A DNA stretch of 35,383 bases from Monoglobales bacterium (GCA_041678125.1 JBAYOS010000001.1:1-35383); one strand, 5' to 3'; numbered from the stretch's first letter, positions 14,201 to 18,362 are shown. Numbers and translations are program-made. The notes: generated by a model not told the origin, from the letters alone.

Positions 14201-14389
14201 TAAAAAATTAGCAGAAGATTCTTTATCTCCTTGACGCGCCATATCTTCGTTTTCATACGCAAAATAATTGGCATGCATCGGCGCACGATTTACTGCGTTT
14301 ATTTGCGGATTCTGCCATTCGGCATGTTGCGCTTTTGCAACAAAAATCAATATAAAAAACGTAGCCGTTAATAATAGTCTGTTTTTCAT
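11285..14389 (-). CDS. GH2 beta-galactosidase (LacZ-like, 1034 aa)
   Basis: It has a signal peptide, [10 protein letters not shown] (acid/base region), [12 protein letters not shown] (nucleophile region), and a C-terminal beta-galactosidase small-chain-like part. Confidence 0.9.
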
Positions 14390-15885
14390 TTCGGTAGTTT
14401 GTTTATATAATTGCGAACCTGTATTTTATCTCCTTTTCTGACTTTGACTTCAACATAAGAAATTTTATTACCCAGCCTGTCGGTGCGAAACGAAGCATTC
14501 TTTTCTTTTCCATTAACCCAGATATGAGGGTGTTCGCCTATGAATGCAGCCTGCCAAGTTAGTTTATTAGGCGTGTTGTTGGTAAATTCGGTCGCGGTAT
14601 TTCCATCGTGCCGAACGGTAACATATCCGCCAAGCATGGGTACATCTTTAACCTCGGCATAATCTTGCTGTGTGGGAAGTTTGGGCAGCGTAACGACTTT
14701 TTTCTTTGAAGCACTCGGCTCGATGCCCATCGCACCGTTAATGAGCGCTTCAAGCATAGAGTATGAAACTTCCGGATATTCCGAACGCTCCATTGAAATG
14801 ATTTTGGTAAAAATATCGTATGCTTTTTGGGGATAGTTATAACGGTACCACAAAGATGGATTATAGGACAAAAGTTCAACATTAATCGCACTGGTGTTTA
14901 TTGTGTTAAGATGTCCTTGTATTCGGTCGGGTTCATGACAGGCGTCAACCCACAAAATGTATGAAGTTGCGGGTCTTTGGTCAAGTCCTTTTTCATCATA
15001 ATGTTTTCCCCAGTAAAAATATTTGGTATCTTCATTCCACCAGGTTTTGCTCAGTAAATCATAATATCCCTGCGCCGCCTTTTTTGCTTCAATGCTCTTT
15101 TTTGTGTCGCCCCAATTAGCGAGTATATTAGCATAAGCGGTAAATCCGGCATAACCGTAAGCTACCATATCGCATCCGACCATGTGTACGGGAAATCCTT
15201 CATCGTACGATGGTATTCCACGTGCTTCTCTGAAATAACCTTCGGTTTTTTCCCTTGCATTTAAAAAACGTGGACGGTTCATGATTTTTTCAGGTTCGAG
15301 CTGCCATTTTTTGATGTATTCATCGAATGTGCGGTCGAAGAAGTTTTTCATTGCAGGGTTTTTAATATACCTTTCGTCGCCCGTCCATTCGTACAGCCGC
15401 CAACATCCGAACGTAAATTCGAAATTAGCGGGAAGATTGTACCAGAAGTTGTTGTCATCCACATAATCGACAGGACAGGGGTCTCCGCTTTTATCTATCT
15501 CCCAAAATGAACACCAGTCCCTTGATTCCGAAATTCCTTCGGCAAAACGGCACATCATGTTGTAATTATGTTTGGAAAGCCCGAGTATTTCGGCGCCAAT
15601 GCTTTGATGCGATGCATCGCGTATGGCAAAAGCATCTCTACCCGGAAGCGCCGCTTCATACCAATATCCTACCGGGTCTTCTCCAAAATGCGCATAACTC
15701 AATGCCATTTTTTGCGCCCAATCAAATGTCCGTTTGAGGTTTTTATCCGAAGAATTGAAGGTGATGCTACGGACTGCATTATTGTTTGGTTTTGTTTGTT
15801 TTTTGCTGCTTTCTTTTGAAAGACAGCTCGTTGTGTTAACAACTGCCAATAAAGCCAACACGGCTGTCGATATTTTTATGTTCAT
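14386..15885 (-). CDS. Lipoprotein of unassigned family, paralogue of 16809..18362. A possible six-hairpin glycosidase-like fold plus C-terminal beta-sandwich is inference only.
   Basis: Lipobox ..NTTSC. Long blocks are shared with its paralogue. Its stop overlaps the GH2 start (ATGA at 14386-14389). Confidence 0.5.
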
Positions 15886-15934
15886 TGTTGTTTTTATGTT
15901 TAAAAATTCCTATTTGATACCTATCACGGAACGA

Positions 15935-16780
15935 TTAAAATTTACGAATCCAATCCAGCATCAAGGTTTTCATTTGCTCGTGATATTCAAACCAGCCGGC
16001 AAAACCCCAACCGTGTCCTCCTGTTGGAAATATGTATATTGCCGATTGCACTTTATTCTGTTTCAGCGCATCATAAAACATAATTCCGTTATGAGGATCG
16101 ACGCAAGTATCATCATCGCTGAAAAGAAGCATGGTTGGAGGAGTATCGGTTGTTACCTGTAATTCGTTGGAATAAAACCGAATGGTTTTATTTGTTGGTT
16201 TTTCACCCAATAAATTTTTACGCGAATCATCGTGCGTAAATTCTCCCATTGAAATTACAGGGTAAACCAACAAGCCGAAATCAGGACGTGAATCTTCATC
16301 GTAATGCGTCAGGAGGGTGGAAGCAAGATGCCCTCCTGCAGAAAATCCCATTACGCCTATTTTCTCCGAATTAATGTTCCATTCTTTTGCTTTAGCACGT
16401 ATTGTTTTTATGGCTTGCTTGGCATCAGCCAACGGTATTTCCGAATGTCCGTTTGGCAAACGGTATTTCAATACGATTCCTGTAATTCCGTTCTTTGCCA
16501 ACCAATCGGCAAACAAACTGCCTTCATGTTCCGCAGCTTCTACCACATAACTTCCTCCGGGGCATATCAATACCGCCTTATCCGCTTTGCCATTTTCAGC
16601 CGGCCATATTTTTATGCTTGCTTTCGAGATATTGGATATAAGCCCGTCTTTTGTTTCTTCCGGTTCTGCGATGCCATTATTCTGAACTGCTTCATTCGTC
16701 CACAAAAGAACTTCATGCGTTTGAGCCACAGTGTTTAACGTGAATATTGTAAATAAAATTGAAAGGACGGTATGCTGCAT
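15935..16780 (-). CDS. Secreted alpha/beta-hydrolase esterase (acetyl-esterase/Aes-like)
   Basis: It has a signal peptide, the nucleophile elbow GFSAGGH, an SDDD acid region and GGHGW histidine. Confidence 0.75.
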   Translation of the reverse strand: MQHTVLSILFTIFTLNTVAQTHEVLLWTNEAVQNNGIAEPEETKDGLISNISKASIKIWPAENGKADKAVLICPGGSYVVEAAEHEGSLFADWLAKNGITGIVLKYRLPNGHSEIPLADAKQAIKTIRAKAKEWNINSEKIGVMGFSAGGHLASTLLTHYDEDSRPDFGLLVYPVISMGEFTHDDSRKNLLGEKPTNKTIRFYSNELQVTTDTPPTMLLFSDDDTCVDPHNGIMFYDALKQNKVQSAIYIFPTGGHGWGFAGWFEYHEQMKTLMLDWIRKF

Positions 16781-16808
16781 ATCCCATTAATTTCAGGTTT
16801 ATAGATTG

Positions 16809-18362
16809 TTACAATTTAGCGCATACCTTATCGCCCGCCTTTACTTTTACTTCAACATAAGAGATTTTGTTACCTATCCTGTCGGTTTCCTGTGAAGTGG
16901 TTTCGTATTTTCCGTTAACATTAATCCGGTTGTGGACACCAGTGAAAGCCGCTTTCCAGATTAATTCATTTTTTGTATTATTGGTAAATTCGGTGTAGGT
17001 GTTTCCTTCGTGGCGCACCGTTACATGACCTCCCAATACAGCCACATCTTCCATTTCGGCATAATCTTTATTTGTGGGAAGCTGCGGCATGGTAGTAAGA
17101 GTATTTTTTGAAGCACTTGGGACAATGCCCATAAGACCGCTTACAAGCGCCTCGATGGCTGCGTATGATACTTCAGGATATTCATTTCGGTACATGGTCA
17201 AGAAACTGTACAAATCATCATAAGCCTTCTCCGACCATTGGCAGCGGTATCTCATCAGCGGCAAGTATGAACATCCTTCGGCATTCATCCACGATATTGC
17301 CTCAAGGCATCTCTTAGCTCGGTCGGGCTCATGAACGGCGTCCACCCATAAAACAGCCGAGCGAGCAGTTACCGGGCGTTTGCCGTCATCGCTTATAAAT
17401 CCGGTTCCATTCAATCCGTCTTCGTCTCGGTAATACTTCCCAAGCATATACATGTTTATATCGGTATTCCACCATTCGTCATGCAGCAAGTCATAATATT
17501 CCCGGGCTTTTTTTGTTGCTTCTTCTGCTTTTTTTGTCTCTCCGTTGTGACGCAGGATATTGCTGTATGCCGTAAAACCGGCATAGGCGTAAGCTACCAA
17601 GTCGCTGCCGACCCCAATAGATTTTGCTCCATAATCATCTTCATGAGAACCTTTAAGTTCATCGTACGAAGGTAATCCTCGCGCCGACTTGAACCAATCT
17701 CTCGTTTCAGGATGGTTGTTCAGATATTGGGTGCGATTCATAATTCTGTCCGGCTCAAGCTGCCATTTTTTGATATATTCATCAAACGATCTGTCGAAGA
17801 AATACAGCATTGTGGGATCTTCTATGTATCTTTTGTCGCCTGTCCATTCGTACAGACGCCAACTGGAAAAAGCCATATCAAAGTTGGCGGGAAGATTGTA
17901 CCAAAAATTCGCGTCACTTTTATAATCTGCAGGACAAGCGCCCCCTGTTTTGTCTATTTCCCAGTAGGTACACCAATCTTTCGATTCCGAAATATTCTCG
18001 GCGAAGCGGTATGTCATATTCCAGTTATGTTTCGAAAGGCCAAGCGGTTCTGCACCAAGAGCTTGATGCAACATGTCGCGTACGGCAAAAGCATCCCGGC
18101 CGGGGAGAGCGGCCTCTATCCAATAACCTACTGGGTCGGTACCATCATGGGCATAACTCAACGCCATTCTCCGCGCCCAATGAAACACTCGCTCAAGATT
18201 TTTATCTGAAGAGCTAAAAGCTATATTTCGGGAAGTTTCTTCAGTCCCGGAACCGGATTGTTCTTGCTCTAATTCTCCAGAAGGAGAACAAGCAAGAGAA
18301 ATAGAAAAAAACAAAGCAATTGCAATTACCATTTTACTCATATTTTTATTATTAATTGTCAT
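16809..18362 (-). CDS. Lipoprotein of unassigned family, paralogue of 14386..15885
   Basis: Lipobox ..SLACS (the true start may be the internal MSKMV at 18341). Shared blocks are [66 protein letters not shown] and [11 protein letters not shown]. Confidence 0.5.
   Translation of the reverse strand: MTINNKNMSKMVIAIALFFSISLACSPSGELEQEQSGSGTEETSRNIAFSSSDKNLERVFHWARRMALSYAHDGTDPVGYWIEAALPGRDAFAVRDMLHQALGAEPLGLSKHNWNMTYRFAENISESKDWCTYWEIDKTGGACPADYKSDANFWYNLPANFDMAFSSWRLYEWTGDKRYIEDPTMLYFFDRSFDEYIKKWQLEPDRIMNRTQYLNNHPETRDWFKSARGLPSYDELKGSHEDDYGAKSIGVGSDLVAYAYAGFTAYSNILRHNGETKKAEEATKKAREYYDLLHDEWWNTDINMYMLGKYYRDEDGLNGTGFISDDGKRPVTARSAVLWVDAVHEPDRAKRCLEAISWMNAEGCSYLPLMRYRCQWSEKAYDDLYSFLTMYRNEYPEVSYAAIEALVSGLMGIVPSASKNTLTTMPQLPTNKDYAEMEDVAVLGGHVTVRHEGNTYTEFTNNTKNELIWKAAFTGVHNRINVNGKYETTSQETDRIGNKISYVEVKVKAGDKVCAKL

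Follow-up and report, generated by a model that had tools for sequence, protein, structure and literature searches.

Two paralogous lipoproteins, UnkA and UnkB, are encoded in a polysaccharide utilization locus (PUL) within a 35,383-nucleotide stretch of DNA deposited under Monoglobales bacterium (GCA_041678125.1, JBAYOS010000001.1:1-35383; hereafter the window). We consider it reasonably probable that both are exported six-hairpin glycoside hydrolases (GHs), which, by analogy with characterized enzymes of similar fold, are probably inverting, and which form part of a mobile PUL. Their substrate, as suggested by the genes around them, would most likely be a glycan rich in alpha- and beta-galactosides.

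Paralogy, export and predicted fold of UnkA and UnkB

BLASTP aligned UnkA and UnkB colinearly and nearly end to end, with 289 identities over 512 positions (56%; E = 0), UnkB carrying 2 loop insertions relative to UnkA. All motif blocks quoted in the first-pass annotation, which had called the 2 genes paralogues from the DNA alone, were found in the proteins. Neighbour-joining analysis of 48 homologues grouped the pair in an exclusive clade with P0002, which represents UnkB at 90% clustering; the duplication is thus lineage-specific. Both N-termini carry the anticipated lipoprotein signal, a hydrophobic segment ending in a lipobox cysteine (preceded by ..NTTS and ..ISLA, respectively), and most homologues likewise possess signal peptides that usually contain a cysteine. 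The corresponding NCBI models, WCX81_00050 (440 aa) and WCX81_00060 (421 aa), begin at internal methionines and drop both the lipoprotein signals and N-terminal residues conserved in the family, such as W56; thus, the longer open reading frames (ORFs; 499 and 517 aa) are the better models. The 2 genes flank a Ser/Asp/His alpha/beta-hydrolase esterase gene, and the UnkA stop codon overlaps the start codon of a GH2 gene as ATGA, as read directly in the sequence (..CCGAAATGAAAAAC..), both as previously described.

AlphaFold2, run on the alignment of the 48 homologues (A1), yielded a model of UnkA with a predicted local distance difference test score (pLDDT) of 87.4 and a predicted template modelling score of 0.88. 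In this model, 11 main helices over residues 48-385 are followed by a beta-sandwich over residues 389-492; the protein starts straight with the barrel, the N-terminal domains of the GH78 type being absent. In a Foldseek search of the PDB, 120 matches reached E 1e-3 or better. The 50 that were listed are without exception carbohydrate-active enzymes with a six-hairpin fold, GHs and GH-family phosphorylases making up nearly all of them; identity was 9-14% and the query TM-scores (TMq) were 0.62 or less. The best match was the GH78 enzyme 3cih (E 2.5e-12, TMq 0.61), and GH95, GH116, GH65, GH94, GH142 (rank 44, TMq 0.50) and GH146 were also represented among the matches listed. The model and the Foldseek matches agree in bearing out the earlier guess of an (alpha/alpha)6 six-hairpin protein with a beta-rich C-terminus. 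On the basis of the model, UnkA and UnkB belong to the six-hairpin fold, with no solved family closely related to them.

Sequence comparisons did not place the 2 proteins in a family. With Pfam-A (2025), NCBIfam 20.0 and the PDB (2026) serving as proxies for CAZy/dbCAN, neither protein matched a Pfam model at E < 0.01 (at E up to 10, the sole match was that of UnkB to PF16525, with a chance-level E of 0.089) or an NCBIfam model at E up to 1, and a phmmer search of the PDB gave no significant match for either protein (E 0.1 or higher for UnkA). The family profile produced marginal and local PDB matches to the GH142 domain of BT1020 (E 2.5e-4, spanning 90 residues only, 824-913) and, over barrel helices 6-7, to YgjK (GH63; 0.015) and the trehalase TreA (GH37; 0.02). 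When the homologues were scanned singly, sub-threshold matches covering about 75-90 residues were obtained to PF22422 (GH63-like) in 30 of the 48 and to PF01204 (GH37) in 18, with best E-values of 8.2e-7 and 1.4e-5, respectively; no homologue exceeded the gathering score of PF22422, PF03200 or PF01204, and UnkA and UnkB had no match to these models whatever. Overall, no confident hidden Markov model (HMM) or structural match to a characterized family emerged from these searches, the Foldseek matches being at the level of fold and spread over at least 6 GH families. The first-pass description of the pair as unassignable holds at the family level and fails at the superfamily level, where the six-hairpin assignment can be made. 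We regard the proteins as a candidate new family within a well-known fold, novelty being judged against Pfam-A, NCBIfam and the PDB, CAZy listing aside. PULs regularly yield new six-hairpin GH families, so such a family would come as no conceptual surprise.

That UnkA and UnkB might instead be highly divergent members of an existing CAZy family, either GH78-like proteins without N-terminal domains or representatives of a family without a Pfam model or structure, appears unlikely. GH78 enzymes (3cih from Bacteroides thetaiotaomicron, 2okx, 6i60 and 8iwd) resemble the pair in being exported PUL enzymes with an (alpha/alpha)6 barrel followed by a C-terminal beta-sandwich, and account for 6 of the 10 best Foldseek matches. 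Furthermore, UniProt auto-names some relatives 'Alpha-L-rhamnosidase six-hairpin glycosidase domain-containing protein', named relatives being 'hypothetical protein' at NCBI, and GH78 genes adjoin family members at loci L053/L057 and L094. However, identity to the GH78 enzymes is 10-12%, TMq reaches at most 0.61, the N-terminal beta-sandwich domains are missing, and PF17389 (Bac_rhamnosid6H) matches neither UnkA nor UnkB at E up to 10 and just 1 of the 48 homologues (E 1.1e-3). The GH78 catalytic motif, which we take to be DCPxRE(K/R)xGWxGD with the Glu as general acid, is fitted by DCPHREKLGW in the GH78 protein encoded at L057. In the analogous LPxRxAF(C)MRD of the UnkA/UnkB family, the would-be Glu position is occupied variably by E, N, D, Q or K, and mapping of the motif was rejected. 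In domain content and catalytic motif alike, UnkA and UnkB do not show the hallmarks of GH78.

Nor do they show the features of GH63, GH37, GH127 or GH146. The clan GH-G-type families GH63 (YgjK, MGH1-like) and GH37 gave the sole sequence-level signals besides the GH142 profile match. They have the six-hairpin fold in common with UnkA and UnkB and use the inverting Asp/Glu chemistry assumed here for the pair, but the matches lie below threshold and the YgjK-type N-terminal domains are absent. GH127/GH146 membership, with its Cys-nucleophile mechanism, was rejected: C125 is invariant in close homologues, but 63% is its retention in the wider family; C87 and C161 are present in 74% and 54%, respectively, and UnkA and UnkB have Ala at position 87. 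The GH142 beta-L-arabinofuranosidase domain of BT1020 (5mqr), a six-hairpin enzyme that degrades a complex plant glycan and is encoded in a Bacteroides PUL, might be related: it is the best profile-to-PDB match and also a Foldseek match, although the alignment is confined to the approximately 90 residues noted above, and shared catalytic residues are not evidenced. Three further sets of candidates were set aside, namely, GH192-194, reported in a beta-1,2-glucanase paper in which GH97 is mentioned only in the discussion of mechanism and irrelevant here; GH195, which is GH99-like; and 3 soil-metagenome beta-galactosidase founders (Cheng et al. 2017, a source cited for newer beta-galactosidase families), which are not six-hairpin proteins.

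Conserved residues and the putative active site

Of the 70 invariant columns in A1, 37 map to alternate, long loops that share one barrel face (H1-H2, H3-H4, H5-H6, H7-H8, H8-H9 and H10-H11) and 2 to the short loops of the opposite face. Clustering of invariant residues on the long-loop face is the usual layout of six-hairpin glycosidases. Conservation was then assessed across 90 near-full-length representatives aligned to the family HMM, which are 26-50% identical to UnkA (median 34%). R83, R89, D90, H93, W128, D140, D144, Y227, E229, D239, E337, Y370, P371, E372, G387 and W444 are each retained in at least 91% of them, and UnkA and UnkB both hold every family-invariant residue. Seven of these residues are acidic (D90, D140, D144, E229, D239, E337 and E372), so that the conserved carboxylates on which the first-pass annotation had staked its enzyme prediction are present even in distant relatives.

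The retention of 7 carboxylates together with aromatic, Arg and His residues at such low identity is active-site-like and argues against UnkA and UnkB being non-catalytic glycan-binding or scaffold lipoproteins that merely retain the six-hairpin fold. In addition, the frequent fusion of family members to carbohydrate-binding modules (CBMs; see below) would make a binding-only role redundant. Activity in the family is undocumented and its genes often lie directly after those for SusD or surface glycan-binding proteins in PULs, as a binding role would suggest, but we consider it very improbable.

Enzymes of GH15, GH37, GH63 and GH78 have their catalytic acid in the middle of the barrel and their base close to the last hairpin. 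By analogy with these families, the general acid of UnkA and UnkB would be a mid-barrel carboxylate, D239 or E229, and the general base would be E372, the Glu of an invariant Y-P-E motif located where the last barrel helix begins. D90, D140, D144 and E337 are predicted to line the sugar-binding site.

The same fold could also support other chemistry, in which case UnkA and UnkB would be non-hydrolytic enzymes (dehydratase, lyase, phosphorylase or epimerase) readying the sugar for the GH2 and GH97 enzymes of the locus. R83, R89 and H93, conserved family-wide, would be apt for recognizing an anionic sugar or a phosphate, and GH65 and GH94 phosphorylases are among the Foldseek matches. A precedent is provided by 'GH154' (BT_3677, BcGDH), a Bacteroides PUL family first classed as a GH from weak or indirect activity data and recently shown to be a uronate (glucuronate) dehydratase, with structures solved (PMC12269599). 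None of these structures appears among the 50 listed Foldseek matches, and the case serves as a caution only. Non-hydrolytic chemistry nevertheless seems improbable to us. The top structural neighbours are hydrolases, and no GH88/GH105 partner, as occurs beside GH154, was present among the annotated neighbours of 80 genome loci encoding family members, annotation having covered recurrent and selected neighbours. Furthermore, UnkA and UnkB are exported lipoproteins, whereas phosphorylases are normally cytoplasmic.

The reclassification of GH154 and the phosphorylases among the structural matches are nonetheless part of a set of points that weigh against reading UnkA and UnkB as hydrolases. The fold alone is no proof of hydrolysis; the putative catalytic residues were assigned by analogy; and comparison with a GH78 sequence using hhalign aligned the C-terminal half only, at 12% probability, leaving the motif region unaligned. 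The gene contexts described below are heterogeneous and do not pin down the substrate, and no paper in the searchable literature mentions the locus of the Phocaeicola plebeius orthologue BACPLE_03887 (locus tags BACPLE_03883-88). Finally, the family may recently have been classified in CAZy, for which Pfam, NCBIfam and the PDB only stood proxy.

Family distribution, gene neighbourhoods and the putative substrate

Searches of 5.8 billion clustered proteins recovered 2182 relatives, nearly all of 470-505 aa, and the A1 profile matched 952 clusters (50% identity) at E 1e-3 or better, including 351 at 1e-30 or better, among 1.84 billion representatives. Judging from these sequence searches, the family is large and discrete. 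In a pattern scan of 1 genome per species, at least 575 species were found to encode a relative. The carriers are mostly Bacteroidota, including Bacteroides, P. plebeius DSM 17135, Muribaculaceae, Alistipes, Flavobacterium and Rapidithrix, with a few bins labelled Acidobacteriota or Gemmatimonadota, and the family is very abundant in gut metagenomes of humans, rodents, poultry and ruminants. Some members are fused to other domains: 2 NPCBM/CBM51 modules (P0265, P0259 and P0234), 3 CBM35 (P0237), CBM4_9 (P0248), CBM6 (P0263), cohesin plus dockerin (P0242), SLH or ChW repeats in others and, in a single case, a GH38N/DUF5054-like domain (P0128). The fusions to CBMs, dockerin and SLH lend independent support to a carbohydrate-active catalytic module.

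Outside the window, the paralogue-esterase-paralogue arrangement, whose conservation across Bacteroidota PULs the first-pass annotation had suggested testing, was found only in L081 and L082. These 2 loci, from other metagenome assemblies (ENA ERZ27247376 and SRR6484323), match the window at 99.99% identity along 21.5 kb and 17.1 kb, respectively, and represent copies of the same element. None of the 80 genome loci encodes a full-length homologue of the esterase, and a second, distant copy of the family is present only in L054. The scan of the 80 loci, together with the identity of L081 and L082 to the window, rules out the arrangement as a conserved module.

What recurs instead is proximity to alpha-galactosidase genes: a GH97 of the BT1871 type or a GH36 lies within 10 kb of the family member in 33 of the 80 loci. 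About 30 loci contain a compact PUL with the order [GH97], SusC, SusD, UNK670, UNK490, [GH97] and hybrid two-component system regulator, and a Flavobacterium variant comprises GH36, SusC, SusD, UNK490 and UNK670 with GH42 nearby. The gene for a second family of approximately 670 aa (for example, BACPLE_03886, L012:7879-9891) adjoins that for the 490-aa family in 24 of 30 cases, in both orders and with gaps of -3 to 150 bp, and the 2 are often translationally coupled; the window lacks this partner. The approximately 670-aa family has no Pfam match and its profile finds nothing in the PDB, yet in a protein search all of the at least 8000 candidates scored were at E 1e-3 or better. Secondary-structure prediction places helices in the middle of the protein, between a beta region at the N-terminus and a beta-sandwich at the C-terminus; the AlphaFold2 model, built on a shallow alignment, is poor (pLDDT 45.5). 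When compared with the UnkA family using hhalign, the probability was just 18%.

The closest relatives of UnkA and UnkB are encoded beside BT_3987-like binding proteins, GH2, GH95 or GH29, GH43, a sulfatase, an M60 peptidase and DUF6055, as well as unannotated proteins of approximately 836 and 403 aa. Neither of the latter has a Pfam match; the approximately 836-aa proteins (L083:18384-20891, L086:11732-14242 and L088:5228-7741) share 75-80% mutual identity, and the approximately 403-aa proteins are located at L083:8763-9977 and L086:8796-10004. The presence of these proteins, DUF6055 and M60 or M43 peptidases next to the closest relatives hints at a glycoprotein substrate. More distant members are found beside GH78, GH106, GH27 and a GH101-like gene (L094) or beside GH5, GH95 and GH29 (L092); in L090, a GH10/GH3/AXE1/GH43 cluster lies upstream of the family member. 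What these contexts share, to the extent that gene content can indicate it, appears to be a decorated glycan or glycoprotein bearing alpha- and beta-galactosides.

In the ECF sigma-controlled locus of the window, which is carried on a mobile element, SusC, SusD and the BT_3987-like protein would capture the glycan and the esterase would strip acyl groups. UnkA and UnkB might then cut 2 related linkages beyond the reach of the known enzymes in the locus, leaving the GH2 beta-galactosidase and the GH97 alpha-galactosidase to complete galactoside breakdown. The O-acetylated, galactose-containing glycan guessed at in the first-pass annotation fits this context.

A broader scenario is conceivable, although we hold it only tentatively and consider it rather doubtful. 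The UnkA/UnkB family and its approximately 670-aa partner may be 2 new GH families that act with GH97 or GH36 in a widespread pathway of gut and soil Bacteroidota for a glycan class not yet assigned to PULs, the window reflecting strain-to-strain transfer on a conjugative-transposon-like element. The co-occurring M60/M43 peptidases, fucosidases, rhamnosidases and GH43 suggest alpha-galactosylated plant O-glycoproteins (of the extensin or arabinogalactan-protein type) or a similar galactoside as the target. Literature searches retrieved no characterization of DUF6055 or of GH97/GH36 PULs.

A known locus with similarities is PUL24 of B. thetaiotaomicron (BT1871-BT1877), which, compared here by gene content, also has SusC/SusD under ECF sigma/anti-sigma control and a terminal GH97 of the BT1871 type (3a24). 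Its natural substrate is reported to be unknown, and it includes the GH43-type arabinanase BT1873; unlike for the window, neither an UnkA/UnkB-family member nor an esterase is mentioned in that paper (bioRxiv 10.1101/2024.06.07.597959). Should activity of UnkA and UnkB be confirmed, one GH family would be added, probably with a second for the approximately 670-aa partner, a common and currently unannotated PUL would acquire a function, and identification of the substrate of BT1871-type loci such as PUL24 could be facilitated.

Organization of the PUL and its mobile context

The PUL consists of a single row of co-oriented minus-strand genes running from position 27740 down to 7600, in the order extracytoplasmic function (ECF) sigma factor, FecR, SusC, SusD, BT_3987-like lipoprotein, UnkB, esterase, UnkA, GH2, GH97 and a protein sorted by the type IX secretion system (T9SS) (Table 1). 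With adjacent susC and susD, the sigma/anti-sigma pair and the GH2, GH97 and esterase genes all on this strand, it is a Sus-like PUL. The BT_3987-like lipoprotein is probably a surface glycan-binding protein. The esterase matches Pfam BD-FAE (3.8e-18) and, below the model cut-off, NCBIfam AxeA1 (5.7e-75), with PDB matches to 7dwc (1.2e-45) and 6a6o (1.2e-42). The GH97 ORF listed in Table 1 opens with TTG. In L081, the gene was called with 661 aa, 13 codons fewer, and translation probably begins at the ATG near 11113.

Table 1. Coordinates of annotated features in the window.
Feature	Coordinates	Strand	Basis
Second RteC	32791..33636		
LinB-like lincosamide nucleotidyltransferase	33710..34519		
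ABC-F ATPase	31002..32591		
RibD_C/DHFR-like gene	30279..30809		
Tyrosine integrase, PUL flank on sigma-factor side	28150..29394	-	Pfam Arm-DNA-bind_5, Phage_int_SAM_5, Phage_integrase
ECF sigma factor	27186..27740	-	Pfam Sigma70_r2 + r4_2
FecR-type anti-sigma factor	25987..26964	-	Pfam FecR + FecR_C
SusC-type TonB-dependent transporter	21852..25160	-	Pfam Plug, CarbopepD_reg_2; STN match weak, below cutoff
SusD-family protein	19917..21839	-	Pfam SusD_RagB 6.3e-51
BT_3987-like_N / DUF4973 lipoprotein	18459..19916	-	Pfam PF08522 5.7e-29
UnkB, 517-aa lipoprotein, paralogue of UnkA	16809..18362	-	ORF, BLASTP, tree
BD-FAE/AxeA1-like Ser/Asp/His alpha/beta-hydrolase carbohydrate esterase	15935..16780	-	Pfam, NCBIfam, PDB
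UnkA, 499-aa lipoprotein, uncharacterized family with predicted six-hairpin fold	14386..15885	-	ORF, AlphaFold2, Foldseek, conserved residues
GH2 LacZ-type beta-galactosidase	11285..14389	-	Five GH2 Pfam domains
GH97 retaining alpha-galactosidase, BT1871-like	9128..11152	-	Pfam GH97 N, catalytic and C domains; PDB 3a24 E 9e-262
T9SS-sorted protein, last gene of the locus	7600..9051	-	Por_Secre_tail; RicinB_lectin_2 and FIVAR weak, below cutoff (Pfam, NCBIfam)
RteC-family regulator, opposite PUL flank	6286..7125	-	Pfam RteC 1.6e-63
GH108 lysozyme	5559..6092		
Truncated Eco57I/MmeI-type (type IIG) restriction-modification gene, low GC (30%)	3..3110	-	

Judged by their gene content, the regions flanking the PUL (3-7125 and 28150-35170) look like a conjugative transposon, and the LinB-like and ABC-F genes in them suggest that the PUL travels with candidate resistance genes. 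Carriage of a PUL as mobile-element cargo alongside candidate lincosamide- and ABC-F-type resistance genes bears on the spread of glycan niches in gut communities. The contig was deposited under a Monoglobales (Firmicutes) metagenome-assembled genome, whereas SusC/SusD, the T9SS sorting domain and RteC are hallmarks of Bacteroidota; given this content, the contig is probably a mis-binned mobile element.

No RNA families were detected in the window with Rfam. The gene for the T9SS-sorted, ricin-lectin-like protein contains an internal duplication of approximately 390 bp (7859-8241 versus 8525-8916; 85% identity), indicating tandem repeated domains in the encoded protein. Upstream of susC (25672-25868) and again upstream of the ECF sigma factor gene (27925-28123) lies a direct repeat of approximately 200 bp with 86.6% identity, a relatively high GC content and a GGGGC...GCCCC stem; it may serve as a common regulatory region or be a small repetitive element.

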